Shown here piece after piece: positions 3,801 to 64,000 of a stretch of DNA of 64,000 nt. Numbering within the stretch: the stretch's first letter is position 1; each line of letters begins with the position of its first letter. The position numbers and the translations under genes are program-made. The notes under the pieces were generated by a model, which was given only the letters and a program-made list of their open reading frames with translations, did not search any database and had not been told where the DNA came from. Origin of the DNA: Alphaproteobacteria bacterium. GTDB lineage: Bacteria; Pseudomonadota; Alphaproteobacteria; JASGCL01. Location: the NCBI GenBank assembly GCA_965262775.1, contig CBDHFT010000006.1, forward strand, positions 323,437-387,436. The letters are read 5' to 3'.

Positions 3801-4884
3801 TTAAGCGGCTTGAACGCGTGTCCAAGCTTCATCCATGGCTCGGGCGTTTTCTTCGCCCAAATACAAGGTTGATTCATATTTTTTCCGCACATCGGCCGTG
3901 GGCCATAAGATGGTATCTTTTTTATAAGAATCAGGCATCAAATTATAGGCCGCTTCATTCGGTGTGGAATAACCGATGGTTTCGGTGATGGCTTTGGCAA
4001 CCTGGGCATCCATTATATAATTAATGAAGGCATGGGCGTTTTCGGGGTGCGGTGCGCCTTTGGGTATGGCGATGCAGTCTTGAAACCACAAACCACCTTC
4101 TTTGGCGAAGGCAAAAGCAACATCCTTGTCGCTTTGGTTAACTTGCCAAATATCACCCGACCATTCCAAACATACATCGACGTCTTTGGCCACCAACATG
4201 TCTTGCCCTGTGTCAGGGGCGAAGGCGCGGATATTTTTCTTCTGAGCGATGATAAGGTCAGCCGCTTTGTTGATTTGTTTTTTGTCGGTCATGTTATATT
4301 TGTAGCCCAAATATTTGCCAGCATGGCGCAAGGCGGTGGTTGATTCCGATTGCAAAGCAACACGTTTGGCAAATTTGTCTGAATCAAAAAGCCATTTTAA
4401 GGTTGCCATGTTGGTATCCTTGGTAACCGATTTGCGATAACCAATACCCATCGACCCCGTTTGATAGGGCAGGCTGTATTTGCGCTTAGGATCAAACTCC
4501 GCATCCAAAAATATTTTGAACAGGTTTTTCATGTTGGGCAACTTACCATGGTCAAGCGGCATAAGCATGTTGGCTTGAATCATACGTTGCACATAATCGC
4601 TGGTGGGAACAATGACATCATAGCCTTGGTTGCCTTCGCGCAATTTTCCAAACAATTCGTCGTTGTCGCTAAACAAACTCATTTTAACTTTTATACCCGT
4701 CGTTTTGTTAAAATCGGCCAAGGTGGTCTTGCCGATGTAGGTATCCCAGTTGAAGAAATTAAGTTTTTTTTTCTTCGGCGGCGAAAGACTTTTGGAAGCC
4801 CTCCAGCTTGAAAGCAATACCCGCCACAGCACCCGAGCCTAAAACCCCAAGTGCTGAACGGCGATTTAATTTTTTTTGCATCAT
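3801..4884 (-). pseudogene. potD: periplasmic spermidine/putrescine-binding protein (PotD/PotF-like) with its reading frame interrupted at a T9 run (plus 4764-4772); sequencing error or pseudogene
   Basis: From the ATG at 4884 the frame encodes a signal peptide MMQKKLNRRSALGVLGSGAVAGIAFKLEGFQKSFAAEEKKT* that stops in the homopolymer. The 343-aa mature binding-protein domain (GTG start at 4832 in the ORF track) is in the other frame. With 8 instead of 9 T the two parts fuse into one protein. Confidence 0.6.
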
Positions 4885-5078
4885 TTTTTCTTTCTTTGTT
4901 GATAATGTTATTTTTTTATGCCTTTTACGGCGCCTTCATTCTACTCTCTTTTTATTATCTGTAAAGCGACTTTTTGTCTTTCTGCTATTTTATATTACTT
5001 TTATAATATTAATTCAACTTTAAATATAATTTATACCAGGTCGCGCTTGACGGTATTCATGCTTTTTTATGGTTTTTA

Positions 5079-6203
5079 TCATTCCAATGGCAATTGGTCT
5101 TCGATAATAATTTGCTTTTTGGGTTTAATTTTTAAGTAATCATAACCTTCCTTACCCAAAACGCGGCCACGGCTGGTGCGAATCACGAAGCCTTTTTGAA
5201 TCAAAAATGGTTCCACCACCTCTTCCAATATATCTTTTTCATTGCCCAAGGCCGCCGATAGGTTATCAATCCCCGTTGGCCCACCATCGTAAAGTTCGGC
5301 TAGGCATTTTAAATATTTGCGGTCAAGGTCATCGAGCCCCAAACCATCGATGGATAGGTTATCCATGGCCTTGATAACCATGTCTTGATTAATAACAGCC
5401 AGGTTGTTGATGACACCATGGTCGCGCACACGGCGGGTTAACCGCCCCGCGACGCGTGGGGTGCCGCGACTTCGTTTGGCAATTTCTTGCGCCCCCTGAT
5501 CGCCCAACTTGATATTAAAAATATTGGTTTGCCGGGTGACGATGGCCGCCAATTCATTTTCATTATAAAAATCAAGGTGAAGGGATAAACCGAATCGGTC
5601 GCGCAGCGGTTTGGCAATCAACCCCGCGCGCGTGGTGGCGGCGATAAGGGTGAAGGGTTTAAGGTTGATGCGCACCGATTTTGCCGATGGCCCTTCGCCA
5701 ATTAAAATATCAATTTGAAAATCCTCCATCGCCGAATATAAAATTTCTTCGACCGAGGGGTTAAGACGGTGAATTTCGTCAATGAACAAAACATCATTTT
5801 CTTGCAACGCGGTTAAGATAGCGGCGATGTCACCCGCGCGGGTGAGGACGGGCCCCGCGGTGGCGCGGAAATTGACGCCAAGTTCATAAGCAACTATCTG
5901 TGCCAGGGTTGTTTTGCCAAGCCCGGGCGGACCAAAGAATAATAAATGATCCATGGCGGCACCGCGTTGTTTGGCCGACAGGATAGCCATGGACAGGTTT
6001 TTTTTTAATTGCTCTTGCCCCACAAAATTTTCTAGGCTTTTTGGCCTGATGCTTGGCGCGTCATCGCTGGTGCTAGGGTGGGGGTGGGGCATGTTATTTT
6101 TCACGTTATTTTTTTCGGCGGCACGCCCTGGCTGGTCGTTGTCATCGTCGGCAATTTTTTGCGCGGCGTCGATGATGCGGTGGATGTTGCGGGGATTGTC
6201 CAT
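5079..6203 (-). CDS. ruvB: Holliday junction branch migration DNA helicase RuvB, with an ~40-aa N-terminal extension
   Basis: AAA+ motifs LLFFGPPGLGKTTLA, DEIHRL and the sensor region are present. No ruvA is adjacent. Confidence 0.9.
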   Translation of the reverse strand: MDNPRNIHRIIDAAQKIADDDNDQPGRAAEKNNVKNNMPHPHPSTSDDAPSIRPKSLENFVGQEQLKKNLSMAILSAKQRGAAMDHLLFFGPPGLGKTTLAQIVAYELGVNFRATAGPVLTRAGDIAAILTALQENDVLFIDEIHRLNPSVEEILYSAMEDFQIDILIGEGPSAKSVRINLKPFTLIAATTRAGLIAKPLRDRFGLSLHLDFYNENELAAIVTRQTNIFNIKLGDQGAQEIAKRSRGTPRVAGRLTRRVRDHGVINNLAVINQDMVIKAMDNLSIDGLGLDDLDRKYLKCLAELYDGGPTGIDNLSAALGNEKDILEEVVEPFLIQKGFVIRTSRGRVLGKEGYDYLKIKPKKQIIIEDQLPLE

Positions 6204-6350
6204 GACAATATTTATGACAGGATTCTAACAGGGTATTGTCATGCCAGCCACGGCATGACGGGTGATTAACGGTGGATTATATTTATGGGATAGGACATTT
6301 GTTGCTTTACTTCTAGCTTGATTCTGTCTATTTTTTCAACCAAGTAAAAA

Positions 6351-7049
6351 ATGGCAAACGGATTATTTATTGTTTTTGAGGGAATAGATGGCTCGGGTAA
6401 AACCAGTCAAGCCAAAAAATTACAGCAATTCATGGCGGCGGCGGGGCGTGAAGTTATCATGACCGAGGAGCCGCGCAAAAAATCTTTGGGACAATGGGTA
6501 AGGCAGAAATTACTGCATACCCGCCATTCATCGGAAGATAACCAGGAAGCGGGCGGCGATAAGGCTTATCCGTCATCCCCCAGCGGCGAATGGCAAAAAG
6601 AAATAGATGATTTAACCATGGTTTATATGTTGTTGGCGGCGCGCGCCGAACATGTGGCCGATGTTATTTTGCCCGCCCTGGCCGCGGGCAAGGTGGTGAT
6701 TTGCGACCGATTTTCCCATTCAACCTTGGCTTACCAAGGTTATGGCGCGGGGGTTGATATTGAATTGATAGAAAAATTAAGCCAGCCGATTAGCGCGATG
6801 GTAAAACCCGACAGGGTTTTTTTGATTGATATCGCGCCGCAAGCCGCGCGATTACGGCTTGAAATGGGGCGCGAAGGCAAAGACACCATGGAAGAAAAAC
6901 CCATCGAGTTTTTTGAAAAAGTAAGGTTGGGTTTTTTAACTATTGCCAGGGACAACCCATCTTTGGTAAAAATTATCGATGGCCTTGATAAGGAAGAAGT
7001 GGTGGCAGCAGCCATAGAAAAAAATATTCAACCATTATTAAAAAACTAA
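6351..7049 (+). CDS. tmk: thymidylate kinase
   Basis: P-loop FIVFEGIDGSGKTSQ and a DRF/DRY-type motif (CDRFSHS). First gene of the tmk-holB-metG-tatD cluster. Confidence 0.9.
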   Translation: MANGLFIVFEGIDGSGKTSQAKKLQQFMAAAGREVIMTEEPRKKSLGQWVRQKLLHTRHSSEDNQEAGGDKAYPSSPSGEWQKEIDDLTMVYMLLAARAEHVADVILPALAAGKVVICDRFSHSTLAYQGYGAGVDIELIEKLSQPISAMVKPDRVFLIDIAPQAARLRLEMGREGKDTMEEKPIEFFEKVRLGFLTIARDNPSLVKIIDGLDKEEVVAAAIEKNIQPLLKN

Positions 7050-7051
7050 TC

Positions 7052-8404
7052 ATGAAAGAACGTTATTCTTCCCCAACCCAGCCGCTACCTCATCCTTTGT
7101 TGGTAAAAAAAATTATTGGTCATGATGCAGCCTTAAAAATATTGACCGATGGATTATTGGCGGGCCAGCCCAAACATCACGCCTGGTTATTAACGGGGCC
7201 ACAGGGGGTGGGGAAGGCAACATTGGCTTATCACATCATCGTTAAACTTTTGTCGCGTGGCGCGCGGCAGGATGGGGTGATGATGATGGCGCCCAAAGAA
7301 AATATTACGGAGTCAGCGAGCGATGGTAAAAAAGCGATCGGCTTATTTGCCGAGGAAGATTTGTTTGCTGGCGGATTAGATTTGGGAGAAATGCCCGCTA
7401 AGCCCGCCGCTAATATTCCCGCTGGGGCAGCAAGTCAAAATGCAGGGGCAATACCAGCGGATAATTCGACAGGTATGGCGGCTGGGGGTGCAGGTAATAT
7501 TAACCGAACAAATGAAGAAGAGGTTATCAAGCAATTGCGCGATGTATCGCACCCGCATTTTTTGCTGTTGGATAAAAATATCGATACAGCCGAAGAAAAA
7601 GGCGAAGGGGATGAGGCGGACAATAAAGCAAGCCCCCGCACAAAAAAAAATCAAATCACCGTTGCCATGGCGCGTAAAATTTCTGCCTTTTTTTCTTTTC
7701 ATGGGTTTGATAAAAATTTACCGCGCGTGGTGTTGATAGACGGCGCGGAAGACATGACGCCCGCCGCCGCCAACGCGTTGCTCAAAAATTTGGAAGAGCC
7801 GCCCCCCAATAGTATTTTTTTTCTTATCAGCCATCGCCCAGGGTTGTTGCCCGCGACCATCCGTTCGCGTTGTTTTATGTTGCCGATAAGTCGCATGGCC
7901 GACGATAAATTATCGCATTTATTAGCGCAATTGGTGCCGACGATTCAGCCAGTTGAAAACGACGCCCTGACCGCGCTGGCGGGTGGGCGATTGGGGCGGG
8001 CGATAGAGCTTTACCAGGAAGCGGGGCTTAATATTTATCGTGATTGGTTGGATTTTTTTCTTAACCCGCAAAAAGAATGGGCCGATAGAAAGAAAAAAAT
8101 CATAACAACTTTGCTAGCCCAAGAACGTCCCGCACGCGCCCAATTGTTTTTGTCTTTGGTCGAGGATTTTTTCTTGCGGATGGCGCATTACATTCATAAA
8201 ACCACCAAAAATTATTCATTTAGCGACGAAGAAAAAGTTTTTCAGCTATTTTTATCGCGCCAAGATATCGCCAAATGGTTGGATTTTTGGCAAACACAAA
8301 AAGAATTTTTTCAACTTGGTTTTGCACCAAAAAATCTTAACCGCGATTATTTGGTAACGCAATTATTAGACGAAACAAGCGAACTTCTATTGCTACGGCG
8401 ATAA
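7052..8404 (+). CDS. holB: DNA polymerase III subunit delta-prime carrying a ~100-aa low-complexity insertion
   Basis: AAA+ clamp-loader motifs HAWLLTGPQGVGKATLA and the SRC-type motif SRCFML are present. At 450 aa it is far longer than typical, because of an Ala/Gly/Asn-rich insert at roughly 7274-7697 that contains an in-frame A9 run. Confidence 0.85.
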   Translation: MKERYSSPTQPLPHPLLVKKIIGHDAALKILTDGLLAGQPKHHAWLLTGPQGVGKATLAYHIIVKLLSRGARQDGVMMMAPKENITESASDGKKAIGLFAEEDLFAGGLDLGEMPAKPAANIPAGAASQNAGAIPADNSTGMAAGGAGNINRTNEEEVIKQLRDVSHPHFLLLDKNIDTAEEKGEGDEADNKASPRTKKNQITVAMARKISAFFSFHGFDKNLPRVVLIDGAEDMTPAAANALLKNLEEPPPNSIFFLISHRPGLLPATIRSRCFMLPISRMADDKLSHLLAQLVPTIQPVENDALTALAGGRLGRAIELYQEAGLNIYRDWLDFFLNPQKEWADRKKKIITTLLAQERPARAQLFLSLVEDFFLRMAHYIHKTTKNYSFSDEEKVFQLFLSRQDIAKWLDFWQTQKEFFQLGFAPKNLNRDYLVTQLLDETSELLLLRR

Positions 8405-8427
8405 TTTTTGTTTAAGGTTGAGGACAC

Positions 8428-9942: not shown

Positions 9943-9975
9943 CCAAGCTATTTAATAAATGAAAGAAGTTACATA

Positions 9976-10827: not shown

Positions 10828-10830
10828 TTC

Positions 10831-11631
10831 ATGACAGAAAGAAATTATTTCGTTGATAGCCATTGCCATTTGGATTTTTTGGCGCGCGATGGGTTGGATG
10901 TTGGCGAGGTTATAAAACGCGCCCAAGCCAACGGCGTAGAAAAATTTTTGACAATCTCTACCAAGTTGGAAACATTTCCCGCGGTGTTAAAAATTGCGGA
11001 AGAATTCGATGATGTTTATGCGTCGGTCGGGGTGCACCCGCACGATAGCGAGGCAACCGTTGAAACCCACCCCGAGGTTGGTGATTTTTTATTACAAGCC
11101 ACCAACCATGATAAGGTAATTGGCATTGGCGAATCTGGTTTGGATTTTTTTTACAACCATTCTAATAAAAAACATCAAACAGAATCATTTCGCACCCATT
11201 TGGCGGTGGCACGAGAGGTTGACATACCCATTATTGTCCACAGTCGCGCCGCCGACAAAGAAACGGTCGATATGTTGCGTGCCGAATCCCACGGTGGAAA
11301 ATTGAAAGGCCTTATCCATTGTTTTTCCAGCACGCGTGATTTGGCAATGGGCGCGTTGGATTTGGGATTTTATATTTCTTTGTCGGGTATTATAACTTTT
11401 CCGAAAGCGCAAGATATTCGCGATGTCTTGCGTGATGTTCCGCTGGATAGGTTGTTGCTGGAAACTGATTCGCCTTACCTTGCCCCCATTCCCCATCGTG
11501 GTAAAAAAAACGAACCATCGTTTTTGCCCGAAACCGCCAAAATATTAGCGGCGGCAAAAAATATATCGGTTGATGAAATAAAAAAAATAACCACCGACAA
11601 TTTTTTTCGGTTGTTCAGCAGTATAAAATAA
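10831..11631 (+). CDS. tatD: TatD family metal-dependent DNase/hydrolase
   Basis: Starts with FVDSHCHLDF and carries the conserved His/Asp/Glu metal ligands across 266 aa. Confidence 0.88.
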   Translation: MTERNYFVDSHCHLDFLARDGLDVGEVIKRAQANGVEKFLTISTKLETFPAVLKIAEEFDDVYASVGVHPHDSEATVETHPEVGDFLLQATNHDKVIGIGESGLDFFYNHSNKKHQTESFRTHLAVAREVDIPIIVHSRAADKETVDMLRAESHGGKLKGLIHCFSSTRDLAMGALDLGFYISLSGIITFPKAQDIRDVLRDVPLDRLLLETDSPYLAPIPHRGKKNEPSFLPETAKILAAAKNISVDEIKKITTDNFFRLFSSIK

Positions 11632-11870
11632 TTTGGCTTAATATTGGGTAGCAATCAAAATTTGAAAACTTAATGATAAAGCCCATTCATAATGGGGAAT
11701 AGGTTTTCACCCTTGGCGCGTTTGTTGACCGCCGTGTTGACCAAAATTTAGTTTTTGCTTTCGCTTAATTGTTTCATCGCGTCGTTCATAAATTTATCGG
11801 TTTGCATAACGGGCACGGCGTTAGATTCATAATAGGTGATAACGAATGATAAAAAGCGTAATAAAAAAAA

Positions 11871-11907: not shown

Positions 11908-11927
11908 TTTGTTTGATTGACGATTGT

Positions 11928-33875: not shown

Positions 33876-34965
33876 CTACCCCTCCATCTTTTCAAAATTG
33901 ATGCGCGGGTCAACCAGGCTGTAACAAATATCGCCCACCAGCCCCAACACCAGCGAGAGCAAGGTAAAAATATAGAGGGTAGCAAAGACCACGGGGTAAT
34001 CGCGGGTGATGGCAGCCTCATATCCCATCAAGCCTAAGCCATTGAGAGAGAAAATAATCTCTATCATCAGGCTGCTGGTGAAGAGCATCGAAATAATCAA
34101 CGATGGCAAACCCGCCAGCACAATAAGCATGGCATTTCTGAATATCACACCATATAGAATTTTTTGTTCGCCCATACCGATGGCGCGCGCCAACATGACG
34201 TAGGGTTTTGCCAATTCTTCTAGGAAACTATTTTTGGTTAGAATTGTCAAACTGGTAAAACCGCCGACCGTGATGGTGATGATGGGCAATACCAAATGCC
34301 AAAAATAATCGATTATTTTGCTGAATAGGGATAATTCAGAAAAATTATCAGACACCAACCCCGATAAAGGAAACCAGGAAAAATAACGCCCGCCAGCAAA
34401 AAAAAATAATCAAAAACACCGCCAGCAAAAAGGCAGGCAAGGATGACAACATAATCAACGTCACGGTGCTGGCCTTGTCGAAATAGGAATCTTTGCGCGT
34501 GGCTTGCTTGATGCCAAGCGGGATACTAACGGCGTAGATTAACAACGCCGACCATAACCCCAAGGATAAAGAAACTGGTATTTTTTGCGCTATCATTTGC
34601 ATGATGGGTTGCCCGGTGGAGAAGCTGACACCGAAATTAAATTGCAAATAGTTTTTTATCATGATGAAAAACCTTTGCACCACGGGTTTATCAAACCCAT
34701 AGAATTTTTCTAATTCGGCGACCACCCTGTCATCAACGCCCACGTAGCGACCTTGATAATTGTTGGATGGGGTAGCGCTGCTAACCTTTACCCCGTCGCC
34801 CGTTTCATTTTTTAACAGCGTGTTGGAATTGCCCTGGGTCATGGCGGCGATGGCGCGTTCAACGGGGCCGCCAGGCGCAACCTGGACCACCGCAAAATTT
34901 ATCAGCATAAGACCAAACAACGTAGGCACCATAAAAAACAAACGGCGTAAAATATAATTTTTCAT
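33876..34965 (-). pseudogene. yejB: ABC transporter permease YejB/DppB-like, split into two ORFs by a +1 frameshift at an A9 run (plus 34398-34406); sequencing error or pseudogene
   Basis: ORF 34348..34965 encodes the N-terminal half (ILRRLFFMVPTLFGL...) and ends in out-of-frame residues right after the homopolymer. ORF 33876..34358 encodes the C-terminal half. With one fewer base they join as ...[32 protein letters not shown].... Confidence 0.6.
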
Positions 34966-35026: not shown

Positions 35027-36487
35027 TTATTTAATTAGTTTTTCGACAATTTCCTGCGCCAATTTATCGGCGGTGAATTCCCCCGCCGCCAACCACGACG
35101 ACAATGATAACCTGTCTTGGGCCATGGGGTATAGATACTGGCTTTTCATTATTTGGCGGGTTTCAACCTCGGCAAAAAAATGACTGCCTTTTCCCAGCAC
35201 GCGTTCGATAACCTGTGCTTGAATATTGGCATCGTTTATCATCGGCGGCATGATGGCGCGTTTAACCATGGCGAGCATATCGTGGTCGGTTATCAAATTA
35301 TTTTTGCTGATAATTTGACCGTCGGCCAATAACCCCGCGCTTTGCCCCACCACCAAACCGCAATGTTGGTTAAGGGCGGTTTGCACCAAACCCATTAAGC
35401 CCAGCGATTTTTCTATACCCGATTGGTTGTCGGGCAATTTGGCCGATGTTTGCGTGGTCGCAACCATGGCGGGGATTTGGTAAAAACGCGCCACCCGCAC
35501 CGCCAATTGTTGCGCCACCATGGTTTCCGCGCTGCCCGTGGTGGTGGTGCCCTGCTTAAGGTCGGATGTGTAGGGAACAAAACCAAAGACAAATGGTGCG
35601 CCAGGGGCAATAATTTGAGTCAAGACCAACCCTGCCAAATTCATGGCGAGGGCCAAGGTGATGGAACCCGCCACGGTGGCGGGGGCGGTGGCGGCGGCAA
35701 TTGTCACCGCGCGGTTTTCTATCACCATGCCGTGGGCAATGGCGTCAAACAGGCTGGCCGCCAGGTCGCTATCGAGCGATAGGTTGGGCAAGAAAGCCGA
35801 TAACCCGAGCGCGGCGCGTTGCGGTAAATCGGGGAATTTTTTTAACAGCGCGGGCATAACATGATGATTATGCAATTCGACGACAAATGGCTTTGCGTTA
35901 TGGTCATAAAGTTGTTGCACCATGGTGTCGTAGGCTTGCTCGATGGAGCCTAGCTCGCTCGCCAAGATGTCGGGTTTGGCGAAGAAGCCTAACATGTCAT
36001 AAAGCGGCATGGCATGGGCAATCTTAACCATGGCCAGGCTGTCGGCACTGGTGATGGGGCGGTAGGTGGCTTGTTTGATGGTGGTGGGTTCGTAAAGATG
36101 GCTGGCACTGCCCCCGACGGCAAAAAATATTGTTGCTTGATTTTGCTCGAACGCCAAATTTTTATCTTGGGCGGGGCGATGAATGGTGCGCGGCGCGGTG
36201 GATAAAGCCTGCAATATTATTTTTTCGCTTAGGGCAAGCCGCCCATTGGGCAGGGCTTGGCAACCCGCGGCCATGATTTCTTTGCGCCATTTTTCATCGC
36301 GCACCATAATGCCAACGTTTGATAAAATTTTTATCGCCGCTTGATGCAAGAGGTGGATGGGGTCGCCACCCGCGTCCTGTAAATAATCTTGTAAATAGGT
36401 TGCAACGCCAGCGGGCGGCGGGGTTACCGCTATGCCGCCTTGCAACTGAAGCGTTTCGTCTATTTTTATATTGCCGCGTCTAACCAT
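35027..36487 (-). CDS. MttB-family (trimethylamine / glycine betaine type) methyltransferase homolog
   Basis: 486 aa with no signal peptide. The N-terminal region (IHLLHQAAIKILSNVGIMVRDE...AGCQALPNGRLAL...STAPRT) and the C-terminal region follow the MttB superfamily pattern. Confidence 0.5.
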   Translation of the reverse strand: MVRRGNIKIDETLQLQGGIAVTPPPAGVATYLQDYLQDAGGDPIHLLHQAAIKILSNVGIMVRDEKWRKEIMAAGCQALPNGRLALSEKIILQALSTAPRTIHRPAQDKNLAFEQNQATIFFAVGGSASHLYEPTTIKQATYRPITSADSLAMVKIAHAMPLYDMLGFFAKPDILASELGSIEQAYDTMVQQLYDHNAKPFVVELHNHHVMPALLKKFPDLPQRAALGLSAFLPNLSLDSDLAASLFDAIAHGMVIENRAVTIAAATAPATVAGSITLALAMNLAGLVLTQIIAPGAPFVFGFVPYTSDLKQGTTTTGSAETMVAQQLAVRVARFYQIPAMVATTQTSAKLPDNQSGIEKSLGLMGLVQTALNQHCGLVVGQSAGLLADGQIISKNNLITDHDMLAMVKRAIMPPMINDANIQAQVIERVLGKGSHFFAEVETRQIMKSQYLYPMAQDRLSLSSWLAAGEFTADKLAQEIVEKLIK

Positions 36488-45222: not shown

Positions 45223-46605
45223 TTATAACACGATGTTGGCCATCAAGCCATCTTGATTGACGCCGACAATTTTGACCGATAAAATTTGATTGGGTGAGAA
45301 GGGGGCAGAGAGATGGGGTGCAGAATCTTGAGAAAACCCATTTGCTTCATCAAGCGTCACGGTAATAAAACCAAATTGTTCATTATGCCCCGCCAATTTA
45401 TCGGGGGTCACGGTTTCAACCAGCAATTGCTGCCTGTTACCAACCTGGCTTTTTTGCCATTGCAACAAATTGTTGGCGCAAACATGGCGCAATATTTGGG
45501 CGCGCTGTTTGCGGGTGGCAAGGCTAACCTTGTTTTTTATATTGGCGGCGGGGGTAAATGGCCGTTCGGAATAGGGAAAGACATGGCCAAAGACGATAGG
45601 AATTTTTTGGATAAGGTCCACCGTATCTTGGAACATCGCCTCGCTTTCGGTGGGGAAGCCAGCGATGATGTCGGCGCCGAAAACTATCGCCCCATTGGCC
45701 GCCCGTAATTTATCAACCACGGTGATGATGTCTTGGCGCAGGTGGCGGCGTTTCATCCTTTTTAAAATCAGGTCGCTGCCCGATTGCAAAGACAAATGAA
45801 TATGCGGTAATAAACGCGGCTCGCTGGCAAATAATTCTATCAATTCATCGTCAATCTCGGCGGGGTCAAGCGACGACAGGCGCAAGCGCGGCAGGTTGGG
45901 CAAGGCGTCCAACAAATGGCGGATGAGGTAGGATAATTTTTTTACGCTGGATGATTCTGAATTATCCTCGCTACGCCAGCTGGCAATATCGACCCCCGTT
46001 AAAACAATTTCTTTGAAGCCATTAGCCAACATATTTTGCGCGCTGTGAATAACATGGTCGAGGCGATGCGAACGGCTGTTGCCGCGACCAAAGGGAATGA
46101 CGCAGAAGGTGCAACGGTGATTGCAACCATTTTGGATTTCTAAAAAACCCCGACTATGGTGGGTGTCATGCGACAAAAGGTGCGGCGAGAGTTCACGCAA
46201 AGTCATGATGTCGCCAACTTGCAATTTGTCATTCGATAAACGGTTGAGATTTTTCTTGGCTTGAATTTTTTCGCCATTGCCCCACACGGCGGATACGCCC
46301 GTTATTTTTTCATAACTGGCACCGTCAATCTGCGCGGCGCAACCCGTAACAATAATTTTTTTGTCGGGGTGGGCTTTGTGTTTTTTGCGAATGGTTTGTT
46401 TCACTTGCCTTTCGGCTTCGGCGGTAACGGCGCAAGAATTGATAACAATAATATCTTTTTCGCCGCGCAATTCTTGGCGTAAGATTGCCGATTCGTGATG
46501 ATTAAGGCGGCAACCGAACGATATAACCTCGGCTTCATGGCCTGCTTGGTTGCTTGGCGATTGGGGCAATTGGGGGATTTGCGGCGGAGATATTTTTTCT
46601 GTCAT
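45223..46605 (-). CDS. mtaB: MiaB-like tRNA methylthiotransferase (MtaB-type)
   Basis: UPF0004 domain, radical-SAM motif LEIQNGCNHRCTFCVIP, and a TRAM domain. Sits next to ftsY as in many alphaproteobacteria. Pro/Gln-rich N-terminus. Confidence 0.8.
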   Translation of the reverse strand: MTEKISPPQIPQLPQSPSNQAGHEAEVISFGCRLNHHESAILRQELRGEKDIIVINSCAVTAEAERQVKQTIRKKHKAHPDKKIIVTGCAAQIDGASYEKITGVSAVWGNGEKIQAKKNLNRLSNDKLQVGDIMTLRELSPHLLSHDTHHSRGFLEIQNGCNHRCTFCVIPFGRGNSRSHRLDHVIHSAQNMLANGFKEIVLTGVDIASWRSEDNSESSSVKKLSYLIRHLLDALPNLPRLRLSSLDPAEIDDELIELFASEPRLLPHIHLSLQSGSDLILKRMKRRHLRQDIITVVDKLRAANGAIVFGADIIAGFPTESEAMFQDTVDLIQKIPIVFGHVFPYSERPFTPAANIKNKVSLATRKQRAQILRHVCANNLLQWQKSQVGNRQQLLVETVTPDKLAGHNEQFGFITVTLDEANGFSQDSAPHLSAPFSPNQILSVKIVGVNQDGLMANIVL

Positions 46606-51979: not shown

Positions 51980-52140
<161 letters not shown>

Positions 52141-52267: not shown

Positions 52268-52687
52268 ATGGCAAGCGTTGCAACCTATCTTAATTTTTCG
52301 AGCCAGACCGAGGTCGTCTTTGATTTTTATAAATCGGTGTTCGGTGGAGAATTTACATCCTTCACGCGGATTGGCGATGTGCCGCCCGCGCCAGGCATGA
52401 CATTTAGCGATGAAGAAAAAAAATTGGTTATGAATGTGCAATACCCTATTTTGGGTGGTCATGTGCTGATGGGCAGCGACGTGCCAGCAAAACATGGCAA
52501 GGTGGAGATGGGCAATAATATTTCCATCGCCCTGATGGTTGATAGCGTGGATCAAGGAAAAAAATTATTCACCGCCCTGGCCGCGGGGGGCAAGGTTGGC
52601 ATCGAATTTCAAGAAATGTTTTGGGGCCATTGGGGCTCGCTCACCGATAAATTTGGCGTGCGCTGGATGGTTAATTGTAACAAGTAA
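52268..52687 (+). CDS. VOC/glyoxalase superfamily protein, PhnB-like
   Basis: 139-aa protein with a PhnB/3-demethylubiquinone methyltransferase-like fold pattern (FGGEF..., GGHVLMGSD, FWGHWGSLTDKFGVRWMV). Confidence 0.65.
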   Translation: MASVATYLNFSSQTEVVFDFYKSVFGGEFTSFTRIGDVPPAPGMTFSDEEKKLVMNVQYPILGGHVLMGSDVPAKHGKVEMGNNISIALMVDSVDQGKKLFTALAAGGKVGIEFQEMFWGHWGSLTDKFGVRWMVNCNK

Positions 52688-55602: not shown

Positions 55603-55638
55603 GCTGTATCGTTGGGTATATCGTTGGGCTTATCATTA

Positions 55639-57058
55639 TTATTTTTTCTTTTTTGATTTGGCGGGTTTGGCAAGCCCTTCCATCATCGAGGCCTCCAACC
55701 CATGTTTATAAAATTGTTCTTGGCTGCTTGTCGCGGGGATTCCCAAACCAATCAGCTTAAGGATATAATAACTGCCTGCACCAAATACAAAACTATACAT
55801 AACAACAAACGCCACCAGCGACCATAAAACTTGCGGCCCCGTGATGGCGGGCGACACCGATTCAACTGTGCGCATCACCTCATAAACGGTGAAGGGTTGC
55901 CGACCAATCTCGGTCACGAACCAGCCCGCCAACAGGGCGATAAAGCCGCTTGGCATCATCGCCATCCACCAATATTGCAGGGCGCGGTTGGTAAAAATCT
56001 TTTTGCGATAATAGGCCCAAGCGCTGGTAAGCCCCAAACCTATCATCAACAACCCCAAGCCAATCATAATACGGAATGACCAGAAAACCCATGCGACATA
56101 GGGCCTGTCGGCGGCGGGCACCGATTTTAACCCCTTTGACCTCGCCATTCCAGCTGTGGGTCAGGATAAGGCTTGAAGCATAAGGTATAGATAGCTCGTA
56201 ATGATTCTTTTCATTTTTTTGGTCGGGGATAGCAAACAGACGGAAGGCAGCGGGTTGTTCCGTTTTTTCCCAAATACCTTCCATCGCGGCAACCTTCATG
56301 GGTTGGTGCTTGAGGGTATTGAGGCCATGCAAATCACCAACCAATAATTGTAAGGGCGCGGCCAAGGCCAGCATAAGCGTCGCCATGGCAAGCATGGTTT
56401 TTGCTTCGTTGATATGACGTTTGGTAAAAAGATAGAATGCCGCGACACCACCCACCACCAACGCCACCGAAAGATAAGCCGCCAACACCATATGCACAAG
56501 CCGATAAGGAAAGGACGGGTTGAAAACAATAGCAAGCCAATCCAGCGGATATAACCTGCCGTCGGGGCCGACTTCAAAACCCTGGGGGGTTTGCATCCAA
56601 CTGTTGGCGGCAAGAATCCAAAATGCCGATAACAGCGTGCCCAGGGCAACAATCACCGTTGCCGCAAAATGCATTTTGGGCGACACACGATTAAAACCAA
56701 ACAACATGATACCCAAAAATGATGCCTCCAAGAAAAAGGCGGTTAAAACTTCAAACCCGAGCAAAGGACCTATGACATTCGAAATGCGGTCGGCAAATAT
56801 CGACCAATTGGTGCCAAATTGATAGGACATCACGACGCCCGATACGACCCCCAAACCAAAGGAGACGGCAAAAATTTTTATCCAAAATTTGTAAAGGTTA
56901 AGATAGACGATTTTTCCTGTTTTAAGCCAGAGACCTTCCAGCACTGCTAAATAACTAGCAAGGCCGATGCTCATGGCGGGGAAAACAATATGAAAGCTAA
57001 TCGTGAAGGCAAATTGAATGCGAGCCAGGAGGAGGGGATCGAGAAGGTTATCTAACAT
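55639..57058 (-). pseudogene. cydA: cytochrome bd ubiquinol oxidase subunit I with a +1 frameshift at a C4 run (plus 56131-56134); sequencing error or pseudogene
   Basis: ORF 55880..57058 carries the CydA N-terminus through the Q-loop ...LILTHSWNGEVKG, then reads out of frame. ORF 55639..56148 continues as GLKSVPAADRPYVAWVFWSFRIM.... Removing one G/C restores the conserved EVKGLK..P..RP junction. Confidence 0.65.
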
Positions 57059-57317
57059 CTTTTATCCTGTCCACTTGCTATTCTTTCTTAACTGGCCATG
57101 GTGGCTTAGTTTTTTTTCATTCTATACACAGAAATAACTCTTGTCAAATTGTTCTTAGTTATTGTTGGAAGATTAAGTCTATGACAGAACAATACCAAAC
57201 CCCCAAATGATTTAATAAAAAAATTGCAAGGACATTGTAAAGATGGTAGCTAGAGTCATCAATCATGCCGTTACAAATGCTTGATATATTACATATAAAA
57301 AAATTGGTGAGGTTATT

Positions 57318-58292
57318 ATGACAATTACAACGCGCTTGATGGGTGGACTGGGCAACCAATTGTTTCAATATGCGGCGGGGCGCGTCTTGGCAAAAAAACA
57401 TAAAACGACACTGAGGTTGGATACAAGTTTTCTGGCGCAACAAAATAAAAATATTACCAACCGCCCTTATGAACTGGCACCCTTTACCCTTAAAATTGAT
57501 AGGTTGGAAAATTGCGAGCCTGGCGAACAGGATAAAGTCATTGAAGAAGATAATCTGACCGCCCCCGAAGCATTCATGGCAAGCCCGCCCGATAGTTTTT
57601 TGATAGGTTATTGGCAGGGGCGATTTTATATAGAAAAAATAAAAGATGAATTGTTGGAAACCATCAAACCGACAAAACCATTGTCAAAACAATCGCAACA
57701 AATATTAAGCCAAATAAAAAAAACCAATGCGGTGTTGGTGCATATTCGCCGTGGTGATTACGCAACCTTATCGTCCGCCAATCGGTTTCATGGTTTGTTG
57801 CCGATGGATTATTATCAAAGGGCAATTAATGAAATGCTGCGCCATGTAAAAGACCCAAGTTTTTTTATTTTTTCTGACGACCCGCAGTGGGTAAAAGAAA
57901 ATTTAGCAATAGCAAATCATAAAACGGTATATGTAACCCACAACCAAGGAAAAAATTCATGGCAAGATTTAATATTAATGAGCCATTGCCAACATGCCAT
58001 TATCGCCAACAGCAGTTTTTCTTTTTTGGCGGCTTATTTGTTACAATTGCGCCATGCCAAGGATGCTAAGGGGGAGGGCAAGGAGGGTGGCAAGGCGAAT
58101 ATCATAGCACCACGCGAATGGTTTCGCGCGCGCGCCGTTGACCAAGAAAAATGGTTTCCAGCTGGTTGGCAATTGTTATCGGCCCAGCCCCGTTCGCCAT
58201 TTCGTACTTTCTATAGGTTATTGACAAGCAAGATAAAAACCCGCATTAAATTAACGATAAAGCGACATAAAACCAAAGGCATAACAACATGA
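57318..58292 (+). CDS. glycosyltransferase family 11 (alpha-1,2-fucosyltransferase-like) with a Lys/Gly-rich C-terminal extension
   Basis: GT11 N-terminal signature LMGGLGNQLFQYAAGR; 324 aa. Its stop overlaps the next start as ATGA. Confidence 0.75.
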   Translation: MTITTRLMGGLGNQLFQYAAGRVLAKKHKTTLRLDTSFLAQQNKNITNRPYELAPFTLKIDRLENCEPGEQDKVIEEDNLTAPEAFMASPPDSFLIGYWQGRFYIEKIKDELLETIKPTKPLSKQSQQILSQIKKTNAVLVHIRRGDYATLSSANRFHGLLPMDYYQRAINEMLRHVKDPSFFIFSDDPQWVKENLAIANHKTVYVTHNQGKNSWQDLILMSHCQHAIIANSSFSFLAAYLLQLRHAKDAKGEGKEGGKANIIAPREWFRARAVDQEKWFPAGWQLLSAQPRSPFRTFYRLLTSKIKTRIKLTIKRHKTKGITT

Positions 58293-58978
58293 CAGAAATG
58301 ATTTGGGCGATTGACGGCATGCACTGCGCCGCATGTATTGAAAAAATTACCGCGGCGATGACGGGCGAGGAGGGGGTTAAGGTTACCCTCACCCCGCCGC
58401 GTTTGCATGTGGGGCAAGCCAGCAATTTAGCAACCTTGCAAAAAAAAATAAAAAAAGCTGGCGACCGTTATTCCTTGCGCCCCCGCACCGCAGCGGAAGT
58501 GATGGCCGATAACACCCCTCACCACACTATGGCTGACCATAGCCAGCATGGCACGCAAGCGGTCATGTTGGACAATGGCGAGGATAACCGTTCTTTCCTA
58601 CAGATTTATTATCCATTGTTTTTAATCGTGGGTGCGGTGGCGGTGTCGGCCTTAAAAGGCGTCACCAATATTTACGATTGGATGTTAAATTTCGAAGCAG
58701 GATTCTTTCTGGTATTTGGCTTTTTTAAATTGCTTAATTTACCTGGCTTTCGCGACGCCTACGCCACCTATGACCTGTTGGCAAAAAAAATCCCTGCCTA
58801 TGGTTTGCTTTACCCATTTTTGGAATTGGCATTGGGTTTTATGTTTTTGTTTCGGTTTGAATTGGCGATTGCTTTTTATAGTGCCATTATATTGATGGGT
58901 TTCAGTTCGCTGGGGGTGTTGCAAGCCCTGGCAAAAAAACAGAAAATCCGCTGGTGCCTGCCTGGGCACGACGCTTAA
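58289..58978 (+). CDS. heavy-metal-associated (HMA) domain fused to a DoxX/MauE-like 4-TM membrane domain
   Basis: N-terminal GMHCAACIEKI (MxCxxC), a His-rich linker, then FFLVFGFFKLLNLPGFRDAYATYDLL...PFLELALGFMFLF, a DoxX/MauE-type pattern. Confidence 0.55.
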   Translation: MTEMIWAIDGMHCAACIEKITAAMTGEEGVKVTLTPPRLHVGQASNLATLQKKIKKAGDRYSLRPRTAAEVMADNTPHHTMADHSQHGTQAVMLDNGEDNRSFLQIYYPLFLIVGAVAVSALKGVTNIYDWMLNFEAGFFLVFGFFKLLNLPGFRDAYATYDLLAKKIPAYGLLYPFLELALGFMFLFRFELAIAFYSAIILMGFSSLGVLQALAKKQKIRWCLPGHDA

Positions 58979-59070
58979 CCTGCCCATGACCAGCATTACA
59001 TTGGTCGAGGATTTGAGCATGGTCGTGATGTCGGTTGTTATGTTGTGGCATGGTGTGATATAAGCGCGAG

Positions 59071-59727
59071 GTGTTTCGCTTATGTTTGGTAACATCTATC
59101 GGTGATAGGCCGATGGAAGATTATTTAGATTTTTTACGCGCCGCCGTGCTTGGCGGGGTTGACATGGTCCAGTGGCGAGAAAAAAAGCGAGCCTTACAAA
59201 AAAAATATATCAAGCCGAAGCGATTAAAAAATTGCTCGATGAATGGAATCTGCCCTTGATGATTAATGATTACCCCGATATTTGCAAGCAAGTTGGCGCA
59301 GGCGGTGTGCATTTGGGCAATAGCGATATGGCGGTGGCAATGGCTCGCCCCATCATCGGGGCCGATAAAATAATTGGCGTTTCGAAAGAATCAGAAGGCG
59401 ACCTTAAGCAAGCCAACCAAGATGCGGCTATCGATTACATGACGGCCAGCGCTATCTACCCCAGTGCTCATAAATTGGATACTCAAAAAATTTGGGGGAA
59501 TCGAAGAATTAAAAAAATTAGTGAAGATGGCGCAAAAACCCCTCACCGCCATTGGCGGGATTACCCTGGATAACCTTGCCGATGTTATGGCGACAGGGGT
59601 TGCGGGGGTGGCGGTGGTCGGCGCAATTCACAATAGCCAAGCCCCTTACAACACAGCCAAAAAGATGCGTGAAATAATTGACCATGCCACGAGTAAAAAT
59701 ACAGCGCAAACCCCTAACGCTTGGTAG
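59071..59727 (+). pseudogene. thiE: thiamine-phosphate synthase in three frames (two homopolymer frameshifts); sequencing error or pseudogene
   Basis: ORF1 encodes LCLVTSIGDRPMEDYLDFLRAAVLGGVDMVQWREKK. ORF2 encodes ...LLDEWNLPLMINDY...GAGGVHLGNSD...IIGVSKES...AIDYMTASAIYPSAHKLDTQK. ORF3 encodes ...GGIEELKKLVKMAQKPLTAIGGITLDNLADVMATGVAGVAVV.... The joins fall at the A7/A8 runs (59180-59205) and at the A6T3G5 run (59485-59498). Confidence 0.65.
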
Positions 59728-59782
59728 ACTTTTATTAATTTTTTTTTTATATCATTATATATATTTTTTAATCGGGCCTATT

Positions 59783-60712
59783 ATGCAATCCACCGCGCAA
59801 GAAAAAAAATCGACCCTCGCCTTTTCGGATATAAGGGAGAACCTGCCACCCATGCTGGCGGCGTTGCGCGAAAAAAAACCATTGATATTGAATCTGACCA
59901 ACCTGGTCACGATGGATTTTATGGCCAATGCTTTGCTTGCCCTGGGTGCGGCACCCTTGATGTCGAACGCCGATGAAGAAATAGCAGAATTGGTGGGCAT
60001 TTCTTCCGCCGTGAATATTAATATTGGAACATTGGATAGGGTATTTATGCAACGCGCCCTGTTGGCGGCAAAAACCGCGCAAGCATTAAAAAAAATAATG
60101 GTGCTGGATCCCGTGGGGGCAGGGGCCAGTCAATTGCGCAGTATCGCCAGTGCCGACCTCTTGCTATGGGCAACTATTGTGCGCGGCAATGGTTCGGAGA
60201 TCCTTTCGCTTGAAAAACAAAGTAGGGCAGGACAAGACGGGCATGGAAATCAAAAATCCTTGGCGCATAGCGGCCCTGTGGAACATGTGGGGCCGCTCGG
60301 CGTTGAATCAACCGTTGGTTCGCTTGATGCCGTCATGGTTGCGGAACAATTGGCAAATCAAGGCAAAATAATTATTGTCAGCGGGCGCGAAGATTATATC
60401 ACCGATGGTCAACAGAATTTTAGTTGCCCCTATGGCTCGAGCCTTATGCCATCGGTGACGGGCATGGGTTGTGTTTTGACGGCGGTGGTGGCGGCTTTCG
60501 CCGCGCTCGGCGGCAATGGTTTGGTGGCGGCCAACATGGCGGTGCATTTTTTTGCCCTGACGGGGCAGGTGGCGGCGCAGTCGCATAACGAACCCGCCAG
60601 CTTCAAAACAAAATTTATCGATTTGCTATTTGCGCCCGATTGGCAAGCGATAGAAGAGATTATGGATTACGGCGGCCAGCAAGATAGGAAAACCATCATC
60701 AATGAAATATAA
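59783..60712 (+). CDS. thiM: hydroxyethylthiazole kinase, with a ~40-aa insertion
   Basis: ThiM core (PLILNLTNLVTMDFMANALLALGAAPLMS, VLDPVGAG, IRGNGSEI). Start chosen at MQSTAQEKK so it does not overlap thiE. Confidence 0.8.
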   Translation: MQSTAQEKKSTLAFSDIRENLPPMLAALREKKPLILNLTNLVTMDFMANALLALGAAPLMSNADEEIAELVGISSAVNINIGTLDRVFMQRALLAAKTAQALKKIMVLDPVGAGASQLRSIASADLLLWATIVRGNGSEILSLEKQSRAGQDGHGNQKSLAHSGPVEHVGPLGVESTVGSLDAVMVAEQLANQGKIIIVSGREDYITDGQQNFSCPYGSSLMPSVTGMGCVLTAVVAAFAALGGNGLVAANMAVHFFALTGQVAAQSHNEPASFKTKFIDLLFAPDWQAIEEIMDYGGQQDRKTIINEI

Positions 60713-61520
60713 AGTTTTATCTATTGCGGGGCTTGACCCGTCGGGCGGGGCGGGGGTGTTGGCGGATGTGAAAACATTCTCCGCCCTTGGTTGTTATGGC
60801 ATGGCGGTGGTAACCGCCATCACCGCGCAAAACACCCGTGGGGTAAGCGCGGTATTCGATGTATCGGCAACCGCGGTGCGTCAACAGTTAGAAAAAATTT
60901 TAGAAGATATCATGCCCGATGCTATCAAAATTGGCATGTTGTTTAATGAAGATATTATTTTCACCGTCGCCGATGTTTTGCAAAAAATGGTTTTGCCCAA
61001 AAAAATTCCTATCGTGCTGGATCCCGTCATGATGGCAAAAAGTGGCGATGCGTTGTTGCAACCTGCCGCCATGGCGGCCTTGAAAAAAAAATTGGTGCCC
61101 TTGACCGATATTATCACCCCCAATTTACGCGAAGCCGAAGCCTTGCTGGGTTGCGACACCATTACCGCAGAAACCATGGCAAGCCGCGCCAAGGAATTAT
61201 TAACATTGGGCAGTCAGTCGGTATTATTAAAGGGCGGGCATTTGGAACAAAATATGTCCGACGATTATTATGTGGGCGCAGATATGCCAAACGGTTTGTG
61301 GTTGACCGAGGCGCGGATAAAAACCAAAAACACCCATGGCACGGGTTGCACATTATCATCGGCCATCGCCAGTTATTTGGCAAAGGATTCGGGCAACCCC
61401 AAAAAAATGGCGGAGGCATGCCAAGAGGCTAAGCGGTATTTAACGGGGGCATTGCGCGCGGTGGAGCAAGGTTCGGTGGGCGGCGGCGCGGGGCCATTGC
61501 ATCATTTTTACCAACGATAA
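60702..61520 (+). CDS. thiD: hydroxymethylpyrimidine / phosphomethylpyrimidine kinase
   Basis: VLSIAGLDPSGGAGVLADVKTF, the GC-TLSSAIA motif region and the rest of the ThiD core; overlaps thiM by 11 nt. Confidence 0.88.
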   Translation: MKYKVLSIAGLDPSGGAGVLADVKTFSALGCYGMAVVTAITAQNTRGVSAVFDVSATAVRQQLEKILEDIMPDAIKIGMLFNEDIIFTVADVLQKMVLPKKIPIVLDPVMMAKSGDALLQPAAMAALKKKLVPLTDIITPNLREAEALLGCDTITAETMASRAKELLTLGSQSVLLKGGHLEQNMSDDYYVGADMPNGLWLTEARIKTKNTHGTGCTLSSAIASYLAKDSGNPKKMAEACQEAKRYLTGALRAVEQGSVGGGAGPLHHFYQR

Positions 61521-61837
61521 CAGCATGGTAAAATAACATATAAGAATATTATTTTTTAACTCAATATTGTAAAAAATATACAACCATCGCCATTTTTTTC
61601 AAAATATGGTTTGCGATTCGCTAATCTTATAGTATAATTTTTTTATATTTAAGGAAATGATGCTGTTTTGCTGATTAATGTTGCCTGGATAAAATTTTTG
61701 CTTGACAGATTTAAAGAAATAGTGGAAAGCAAGAATAGTAAAATAATAATCAAAAAAAAACATATAGAGAACATAAAATAGCGTATATTAATAAAAATAT
61801 AAAAGGGAACAAGCGTTACAATGTAAGCAATTTATCC

Positions 61838-61868
61838 TTTGTATCCAATAATTAATTGCAAGTAATAT
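61838..61868 (+). promoter_or_regulatory. putative sigma70-like promoter (TTGTAT-N18-TAATAT) for the FabH-like gene, followed by a 5' UTR palindrome
   Basis: Hexamers read at about 61838 and 61862. The palindrome ACTTAC-TTGAAT-GTAAGT lies at 61891-61908, and the RBS AAGGAAGG at 61926-61933. Confidence 0.3.
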
Positions 61869-61940
61869 AAATATCACATCAGCTAATCTAACTTACTTGA
61901 ATGTAAGTAAAAATTTTTTTAAGAAGGAAGGAATACAGAG

Positions 61941-62945
61941 ATGGCAAAACAAGAACACGGTTTTAAAATAGCAGGCATGGGGCGTTATTTGCCCAAACGT
62001 TGCGTTACATCAAAAGATATTGATAAAATGACGGGCATGTCGGAGGGTTATACCGAAGAACGCACCCACATCCATCAACGTTATTGGGTTTCGGAAGGGG
62101 AAACAACCCTGTCCATGGCCAAGGCAGCCTCGGAGGAGGCATTGAAAAAAGCGGGCATTACGATAGACGATGTTGGTTGCGTTATTAACGCGGGCGTTTT
62201 GGTGCCACAAATTATTCCTTCGACTTCTTCTTTGTTGTTGTATGAATTTGGTACATCGAAACAAGATTGTTTTGATGTCGATTGCACCTGCTTAAGTTTT
62301 GTTAAGGCCCTGGATATTGCCGATTCCTTGGCGCAAACCAAAGATTACAAACATATTCTTATATTCACCAGCGAAATTGCATCCTACGGGATTCAAGATG
62401 GCCATCATGATGTAAAAAGCCTGTTTGGCGACGGCGCGGTGGCGATGGTTTTGAGTAAAGAAAAAGGCGCGAAGTCGCATGTTATGGGTTCGGTATTCCA
62501 AGCCTTCCCCGATGGCGGCGCATTTAGCCAAGTACGTGGCGGCGGCACCCGCACGCACCCCAAGGCCAACAAAGGAACATTGCCCGAGCTAACAAGCTAT
62601 GACTTTGAAATGCAAGGTCCCAAGGTGTTTAAAGTGGCGAGCAAGAATTTCCCTGCCTTCATGAAGTCGGTGTTAGAAAAAGCCAATGTTAAAATGGAAG
62701 ATATTGATTATATCATCCCGCACCAAGCCAGTTATCAAAGTATTATTCAAATTCAAAGACGTTTGGGCGTCAACGATAACAAGGTTCTGCGCACCATTGA
62801 AAATTATGGCAACCAGGTTTCTGTTTCCATCCCCAATGCTTTTTACGAATTGTTTGATTCGGGGCAATTAAAATCGGGCGATAAGGTTATGTTCCTTGGC
62901 GCCGCCGCGGGTTTGGTATTGGGTGCGGTGGTATTGCAATACTAA
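61941..62945 (+). CDS. 3-oxoacyl-ACP synthase III (FabH-like / KAS III family) condensing enzyme, orphan and divergent
   Basis: Thiolase-fold protein with a Cys/His/Asn triad in FabH-like contexts (FDVDCTCLSF, IIPHQASYQSI, YGNQVSVSIP); 334 aa. Preceded by a 420-bp AT-rich non-coding region. Confidence 0.7.
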   Translation: MAKQEHGFKIAGMGRYLPKRCVTSKDIDKMTGMSEGYTEERTHIHQRYWVSEGETTLSMAKAASEEALKKAGITIDDVGCVINAGVLVPQIIPSTSSLLLYEFGTSKQDCFDVDCTCLSFVKALDIADSLAQTKDYKHILIFTSEIASYGIQDGHHDVKSLFGDGAVAMVLSKEKGAKSHVMGSVFQAFPDGGAFSQVRGGGTRTHPKANKGTLPELTSYDFEMQGPKVFKVASKNFPAFMKSVLEKANVKMEDIDYIIPHQASYQSIIQIQRRLGVNDNKVLRTIENYGNQVSVSIPNAFYELFDSGQLKSGDKVMFLGAAAGLVLGAVVLQY

Positions 62946-62975
62946 TAATTAATTATCATTTTTTTTAGATAATTC

Positions 62976-63344
62976 ATGAAAAAAAATAAGGGCTTGGTAT
63001 TTGGCGGTGCGGTGTTAGCATGGTTGCTGCCTATCGCGGTTAGTTTTTTCATGGTTGATGGTTCGACCACGCCCCATAGTTATAAACCCAATATTTATGT
63101 ATTTAAATTGGTGATGTTTATTTTGGCATCGGCCATTGCCTATTATTTTTATAAAAAATTGAGGGATAAAAAAGATTTGACCATTACGGTGGCGCATGTA
63201 TTTCTTGCGACTTCGGTCTTGCTTGACATGATATTGCTTGTGTCGGTTTTTAAAATGCCCTTTATGATATGGGTTGCAATGATATTGCCATTTTATCTGG
63301 TTGCCTTTTATGGGATTTACTTTTTGCTAAACTATAAGAAATAG
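62976..63344 (+). CDS. hypothetical small membrane protein (3-4 TM)
   Basis: 122-aa hydrophobic ORF between the FabH-like and MBL genes. Confidence 0.4.
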   Translation: MKKNKGLVFGGAVLAWLLPIAVSFFMVDGSTTPHSYKPNIYVFKLVMFILASAIAYYFYKKLRDKKDLTITVAHVFLATSVLLDMILLVSVFKMPFMIWVAMILPFYLVAFYGIYFLLNYKK

Positions 63345-63359
63345 TTTATCATCACCGCT

Positions 63360-64000
63360 GTGTTATCAGTAAAATTTTACCAGGCTGGTTTTTGTAAACA
63401 CCCTGAATGCGTGATGAGCGGGCGCATAACTTTAAGTGGTTTAAAAAATGTTTCTATCCCCATGGTGTGTACCCTTATCAAACACCCCAAACATGGGTTG
63501 ATGTTGTTTGATGTTGGGTATAGCGATAATTTTTTAAAAGCATCCGATAAAATGCCATATCGTTTGTATCGTATGGTAACCCCCGTTTCTATCGGTGAAA
63601 CCCTGGTCGAGATGTTGGAACGCGACGGTATTGATAAAAATGATATCAAATATATTTTTATTTCACATTTTCATGCTGACCATATATCGGCGGTCGATGA
63701 TTTCCCCCAAGCAAAAATTATTACCGCCCAGGCGGGTTATGATTATGCAAAAAAAAATAACGGGGTTTGCGGCGGTAAAAAAAGGATTATTACCCGATCT
63801 GATGACGTTGTTTAAGAAACGAAAATTTGAATTTATCGAAGATAAAAAACCTATCAAGGGGCATAAAAAACTTTATAATTTTATAACCCACGATATTTTT
63901 GGTGATGGTGCAATGGTGGCGGTTGATTTGCCCGGTCATGCACGTGGCCAGCATGGATTATATTTGCAAGATACCAACCGCGGAAAAGTATTTTTGGTGG
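63360..64000 (+). pseudogene. MBL-fold metallo-hydrolase (lactonase/thioesterase-like); the ORF-track frame stops at 63815 but homology continues in the +1 frame to the window end, with the frameshift at the A6/A7 run near 63777-63783
   Basis: HFHADH (HxHxDH) lies in the ORF-track frame. ...GLLPDLMTLFKK...HDIFGDGAMVAVDLPGHARGQHGLYLQD... (the PGH motif) lies in the other frame. The text as printed has A6 and gives one continuous frame, whereas the ORF track implies A7. Confidence 0.55.

Follow-up and report, generated by a model that had tools for sequence, protein, structure and literature searches.

Are the reading frames that break off inside a stretch of alphaproteobacterial DNA (assembly GCA_965262775.1, contig CBDHFT010000006.1, positions 323,437 to 387,436 of the forward strand) broken in the cell, or only in the sequence as it was assembled? 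The stretch comprises 64,000 nucleotides and is referred to here, at its full length, as the window. A preliminary description had listed at least six reading frame breaks in it, every one at a homopolymer run, in potD, yejB, cydA, thiE, and a gene for a metallo-beta-lactamase-fold (MBL) protein, and had preferred errors in homopolymer length as the explanation over pseudogenes of a reductive genome or rescue by transcriptional slippage. We found eight mid-gene frameshifts in 6 of about 66 genes (about 9%). At each of them the window has exactly one base more than a related genome, and the genes concerned are otherwise under normal purifying selection. Judged from sequence comparison, the breaks are probably consensus indel errors in a draft, metagenome-derived contig, and we assign a probability of roughly 0.7 to this explanation.

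Eight frameshifts in six genes

The window has a GC content of 45%, is about 90% coding, and contains about 66 protein genes and 4 tRNAs. It was compared with a colinear genome of 1,632,298 bp (ENA ERZ25068833, ctg58208_67x_c; here termed the relative), which, to judge by the label "67x_c," appears to be circular and to have a depth of 67x. The sequences L001, L085, L083, L084, and L082 of this genome span the full window, with nucleotide identities of 90.4 to 95.8% across the 64 kb. A third lineage, present in the Logan assemblies SRR13639655 and SRR13639653, shares 98% identity with the relative and 96% with the window. A literature search for the accessions gave no paper. Split genes were recognized by Pfam matches of neighboring open reading frame (ORF) pieces to consecutive parts of one model, and the break sites were placed by three-frame views and base-level alignment to the relative. 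The ORF pieces of yejB, cydA, and thiE proved to be consecutive parts of single domains (BPD_transp_1, 2-44 and 43-182; Cyt_bd_oxida_I, 1-299 and 295-415; TMP-TENI, 1-41, 34-148, and 136-180, respectively), and the MBL and PotD ORFs are shortened. The products of the split window genes are themselves on record for an NCBI/ENA contig of 412,224 bp, as a 293-amino-acid (aa) PotD piece (P0122), a 113-aa ThiE piece (P0129), and a 205-aa YejB piece (P0279).

The broken genes and the eight break sites are listed in Table 1. Seven of the breaks lie in mononucleotide runs, the exception being a gene for a heavy-metal-associated (HMA)/MauE-like membrane protein (hereafter MauE-like). A/T runs of at least 7 nt hold five of the eight breaks while covering about 2% of the window, which corresponds to a chance probability of about 2e-7. 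Run lengths were compared with those in related genomes, as the preliminary description had proposed; the relative, which has no frameshift over the same 64 kb and carries all of the about 66 genes intact, these six included, is shorter by one base or in frame at every site. The five genes named earlier are thus all truly split, but the breaks number eight in six genes, one of them lies outside a homopolymer, and the MauE-like gene had been overlooked. The expectation that a change of a single base would restore full-length proteins was borne out, since repaired PotD, YejB, and ThiE are full length, and the direction of the change is +1 in all eight cases.

Table 1. Broken genes and reading frame breaks in the window. 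dN/dS is that of the repaired window gene versus the relative.
Feature	Position	Strand	Description	dN/dS
potD	3801..4884	-	potD/potF-family periplasmic binding protein; Pfam SBP_bac_8	0.045
Break 1, potD	4764-4772	-	T9 on + strand (A9 in sense); relative, 8	
yejB	33876..34965	-	ABC-transporter permease; split into 205-aa and 160-aa ORFs	0.071
Break 2, yejB	34398-34406	-	A9 on + strand (T9 in sense); relative, TTTTCTTT	
cydA	55639..57058	-	Cytochrome bd oxidase subunit I; overlapping 392-aa and 169-aa ORFs	0.065
Break 3, cydA	56131-56134	-	C4 on + strand (G4 in sense); relative, C3	
MauE-like	58289..59063	+	HMA/MauE-like membrane protein; last 36 codons out of frame	0.136
Break 4, MauE-like	58953-58956 (~58955)	+	No homopolymer; +1 plus adjacent substitution	
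thiE	59071..59727	+	Thiamine-phosphate synthase; GTG start (probable); three separate +1 breaks	0.205 (neighboring thiM, 0.24)
Break 5, thiE	59180-59186	+	A7; relative, A6	
Break 6, thiE	59198-59205	+	A8; relative, A7	
Break 7, thiE	59494-59498	+	G5; relative, G4	
MBL	63411..64000	+	Metallo-beta-lactamase-fold protein; Pfam Lactamase_B; continues past window end	0.045
Break 8, MBL	63749-63757	+	A9; relative, A8	

The sites previously given for potD, yejB, and cydA were found to be correct. The potD break divides a twin-arginine-like signal peptide (ATG at 4884) from the mature domain; deletion of one base from the run, which in the relative has 8 nt and reads GAAG-AAAAAAAACTTA, yields a protein of 360 aa with 99% identity to P0001, the intact protein of 359 aa in the relative. 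At the yejB site, the window reads ATTATTTTTTTTTGCT, and the relative and the two Logan assemblies read ATTATTTTCTTTGCT; compared with their TTTTCTTT, the window run differs by a synonymous C-to-T change plus one additional T. YejB is intact (362 aa) in the relative and the Logan relatives, and the repaired window protein matches NF011712 over positions 1-363 of 364 with 452 bits. In cydA, the break occurs in a run of merely 4 nt, where the relative, which has an intact 472-aa CydA, reads AACCC-TTTGA; repair of the window sequence gives EVKGLKSVPAADRP. The MauE-like protein of the relative has 254 aa and ends in ...KIRCACLGTTLNLPMTSITLVEDLSMVVMSVVMLWHGMI, a tail that the window encodes in the next frame; the window reads CGCTGGTGCC at this site versus CGCTGC-GCC in the relative, or, in a wider view, CGCTGGTGCCTGCC versus CGCTGC-GCCTGCC.

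Both regions of thiE for which breaks had been described, A7/A8 and G5, are hit, but by three breaks and not by two, with A7 and A8 each carrying one additional base. The peptide WREKSEPYKKIYQAEA of the intact ThiE of the relative (P0123) is read from three successive frames in the window, SEPYKK of the relative being encoded by the third frame between breaks 5 and 6, and the region of break 7 corresponds to DTQKIWGIEELKK in the relative protein. Repaired ThiE matches TIGR00693 over positions 15-196 of 197 with 156 bits, above the cutoff. The start of thiE is probably the GTG at 59071, giving the N terminus MFRLCLVTSIGDRP (MFRLCLVT), and this N terminus (window 59071-59112) is conserved in the homologues P0124 to P0127. 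The gene call of the relative begins 14 codons further in, at an ATG. For the MBL gene, a different site from the one first proposed was established. Repair of the A9 run in Table 1 alone reproduces the peptide YDYAKKITGFAAVKKGLLPDL of the intact 261-aa MBL protein of the relative; the A7 run at 63777-63783, originally held to be the break, is contradicted by this peptide and was rejected.

As had been stated for other A9 runs, the one in holB (DNA polymerase III delta'; 7642-7650, + strand) is in frame; the relative has the same A9, and the protein has 450 aa in both genomes. A second in-frame A9 (5998-6006) is likewise A9 in the relative. The alignment to the relative across 64 kb revealed no further mid-gene frameshift, and no other truncated ORF was seen between 14 and 49 kb when NCBIfam coverage was examined. 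The remaining coding indels between the window and the relative are multiples of three, one net-zero pair (mtaB), or located at gene edges, either among the final two or three codons (ribD and phoH) or ahead of the true start (nudix, SH3, and AKR). Extra breaks considered in ribD, phoH, and the nudix gene were rejected on account of these positions.

Selection, direction, and clustering of the breaks

Do the broken genes bear signs of inactivation? With 60 intact genes as the baseline (dN/dS range, 0 to 0.63), the pooled dN/dS of the broken genes is 0.12 (five genes; yejB left out) versus 0.14 and 0.128 for intact genes, and none of the repaired frames of the six genes contains an internal stop. 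The increase in pooled dN/dS expected of pseudogenes under relaxed selection is therefore not seen, and thiE alone is multiply hit, each time by +1. With the intact genes as reference, the pooled data for the broken genes reject neutral evolution over more than about 2 to 5% of the pairwise divergence. Neither nonsense substitutions nor larger deletions nor insertion sequences were found among the lesions in the 64-kb comparison. The pseudogenes of a reductive genome that had been offered as one alternative are disfavored by these data, since dN/dS is not relaxed, stops and deletions are absent, and no break is shared with the relative.

A variant of this idea is that the frameshifts are real but very recent products of replication slippage in a population that was perhaps deficient in mismatch repair or newly confined to a host, and that the window carries six fresh pseudogenes. 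We consider this unlikely. In host-restricted bacteria, gene inactivation typically begins with homopolymer indels (PMC3017870, PMC3622351), and the window shares with early pseudogenization in reductive genomes the single-base indels in runs as the inactivating lesion, but it differs in that relaxed selection, further lesions, a deletional bias, and losses shared with a relative are all missing. In favor of this variant, the lineage is rich in A7-A8 runs (169 runs of at least 7 nt versus about 75 expected), and the C-to-T change in the yejB tract, which made a longer run, is genuine. At 1.63 Mb, the relative has a small genome, and the best CydA matches listed among species-representative genomes (67 to 72% identity) come from alphaproteobacterial and Rickettsiales-like metagenome-assembled genomes (MAGs), "Ca. 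Megaera," and a Rickettsia MAG. Nevertheless, the sister genome has no frameshift over the same 64 kb, and the lesions of the window are eight insertions without a nonsense mutation or deletion. Since the broken genes and their intact neighbors have equal dN/dS, all events would have to fall into the last few percent of the divergence, although 9% of the genes are hit. This density is far above that of the endosymbiont case, in which an entire genome with 153 long coding tracts has 8 frameshifted genes (PMC3017870).

The direction and the distribution of the breaks are also uneven. A sign test on eight insertions in eight events gives a two-sided value of 0.008, against length differences of either sign in noncoding homopolymers. 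Six of the eight breaks lie within 7.6 kb (56.1 to 63.8 kb; P of about 0.003), and a stretch of 545 bp that reaches from the MauE-like gene into the unrelated thiE holds four (P of about 2e-4). The multiple hits in thiE, taken by themselves, look like decay that followed a first inactivation. For the three hits within 320 bp, however, a rough estimate from the frequency of run changes in noncoding sequence gives a probability of about 0.02 to 0.03 under neutral decay, so that the time permitted by the dN/dS of thiE appears insufficient for two more neutral changes in run length. Moreover, natural decay leads to repeated hits in one dead gene but not in a neighboring gene, and here the four events span a gene boundary. 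A burst of very recent gene inactivation, or a mode of expression that tolerates slippage, is what the breaks would signify if they were real, a meaning that is not favored by the present evidence.

Slippage, phase variation, and recoding

Could the additional bases be real and the genes nevertheless work? This would require RNA polymerase slippage on 9-nt A/T tracts, or phase variation of tract length within the population, as in contingency loci, to restore the frame in some of the transcripts or cells, and we judge it to be highly improbable. According to the accounts in PMC3622351 (citing Tamas et al. 2008) and PMC3017870, frameshifts in poly(A) tracts of Buchnera and Blochmannia are rescued by transcriptional slippage. 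The window resembles this precedent in having frameshifts in A/T tracts of genes that are otherwise intact and show no acceleration of rate. The breaks in potD, yejB, and MBL, none of which shows degradation, occur in 9-nt A or T tracts, the length class of reported slippage (PMC3017870), and the potD tract follows closely on the signal peptide, where on/off switches are typically placed. Rescue by slippage, as suggested in the preliminary description, is thus conceivable at three tracts but fails for cydA (C4), thiE (A7, A8, and G5), and the MauE-like gene. A/T tracts of at least about 9 nt are found at only three of the eight breaks; the other five are in A7, A8, G5, C4, or no run, at which slippage works poorly, and in thiE three corrections would have to coincide.

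Persistence of the out-of-frame state is not observed either, as none of the sites is out of frame in the relative or the Logan assemblies. Tract lengths in potD and MBL are 8 nt in the relative, in frame, versus 9 nt in the window, and the yejB tract is interrupted in the relative and in both Logan assemblies. The tracts of the precedent have at least 9 nt, and some are conserved between strains or species (PMC3017870), whereas in the window no frameshift is shared with the relative and most are in shorter or G/C runs. In addition, 3 of the 10 coding 9-nt tracts of the window are affected, a density per tract several-fold higher than in the precedent, and the GC content is 45% here versus about 27 to 30% there. 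Conserved recoding signals were not found; programmed ribosomal frameshifting was rejected because the orthologues show no frameshift and the sites lack conservation, and Rfam reports only the 4 tRNAs in the window. We regard it as very doubtful that the potD, yejB, and MBL tracts are truly out of frame and that slippage or phase variation expresses or switches these transport and hydrolase genes. Were this the case, a poly(A) phenomenon of insect endosymbionts would extend to a new clade and to DNA of a different base composition, its host being a moderately GC-rich (45%) Rickettsiales/Holosporales-like alphaproteobacterium.

Consensus error as the favored explanation

Consensus indel error would mean that one base too many was called per site, chiefly in mononucleotide runs, and we infer that these bases arose in sequencing or consensus building and not in the cell, for example, in a low-read-depth stretch of a long-read assembly. 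The real potD, yejB, cydA, MauE-like, thiE, and MBL genes would then be intact. We favor this explanation because all breaks are +1, purifying selection is undiminished, other lesions are lacking, the relative is intact, and the breaks cluster across genes, a pattern that a local dip in consensus quality would yield. Two features expected of an artifact are present: the breaks are one-base indels located mostly in runs, in genes that otherwise resemble functional ones and are intact in the relative. There is also an asymmetry between the 67x closed sister genome, which is clean, and the fragmentary contig of the window, in which 9% of the genes are broken. The earlier preference for homopolymer-length error is therefore best supported after comparison with the relative, although one break lies outside a homopolymer and the list of sites was in part wrong and incomplete.

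Residual errors in long-read assemblies and MAGs are homopolymer indels that fragment gene calls, notably at low coverage (PMC9262707, PMC13087279). The window agrees with such assemblies, in which these errors cause low IDEEL scores, in that one-base indels are concentrated in runs and split full-length genes, that about 9% of the genes are truncated, that the errors are clustered, and that the higher-coverage sister assembly is clean. It differs in that all changes are insertions and that one is outside a homopolymer.

A number of points weigh against consensus error. (i) No independent assembly of the lineage of the window was found among protein-cluster members or JGI metagenomes, where patterns for the potD and cydA sites that allowed for variable run length gave no match in two scans. 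(ii) An excess of +1 differences was looked for in the long noncoding runs of the window and not found; noncoding A/T homopolymers differ in length from those of the relative by +7/-4 overall and by 3:3 for long runs. (iii) Replication slippage gives the identical type of lesion, recent events leave dN/dS unmarked, and a recent mutator episode would likewise produce many homopolymer frameshifts in a short time. (iv) The break in the MauE-like gene is not in a homopolymer, and that in cydA is in a run of just 4 nt. (v) The C-to-T change inside the yejB run makes the difference between the window and the relative at least partly genuine at this site.

If the breaks are errors, about 9% of the genes on this contig are wrongly called truncated or pseudogenes, including those for cytochrome bd oxidase, thiamine synthesis, and two transporters, and metabolic reconstructions and inferences of "genome reduction" for this uncultured lineage would be distorted. 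The finding is an ordinary one, and its value is mainly that of an annotation warning for this contig.

Homopolymer content and other differences from the relative

The 169 A/T runs of at least 7 nt mentioned above were counted on the coding sense strands, and the expectation of about 75 derives from a first-order Markov null; after synonymous codon shuffling of the intact genes, the corresponding numbers are 123 observed versus 84 expected. Runs of 7 to 8 nt are about 1.5 to 2 times commoner than expected, with a strong bias for poly(A) on the sense strand (115 A versus 21 T runs). Runs of at least 9 nt are not enriched (15 versus 12 and 6 versus 8.8 by the two procedures, respectively), and the longest coding run has 9 nt. 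The absence of longer coding runs looks like a ceiling on tract length.

Several further differences and neighboring features were recorded. In mtaB (- strand), a -1 and a +1 difference from the relative occur 10 nt apart (45301-45311) without a net shift; this pair is either a compensated frame change of three codons or a product of the alignment, the stretch being divergent and rich in C. A poly-G tract in a glyoxalase-family gene (52585-52590) is G6 in the window versus G9 in the relative, a difference that preserves the frame, and a GT11 glycosyltransferase gene contains an in-frame, G/A-rich insertion of 33 nt (58063-58095) compared with the relative. Directly upstream of yejB/yejE, a locus that neither yejA nor yejF adjoins, there is a gene for a 486-aa homologue of the MttB methyltransferase superfamily (35027-36487, - strand). 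It matches TIGR02369 over positions 9-445 of 469 with a score far below the cutoff, and we therefore take it to be a nonpyrrolysine member.

Between tatD and pnp, the relative has about 1.1 kb of extra sequence (L001, 2175-3260; window, 11615-11648), which contains two small ORFs of 145 and 97 aa without a Pfam match. Finally, the alignment blocks to the relative overlap by about 74 bp at window positions 52066-52139, at the 3' end of tRNA-Ser (51980-52069) and downstream of it. The relative has two copies of this stretch, about 90 bp apart, and the duplication may be an integration-site scar.

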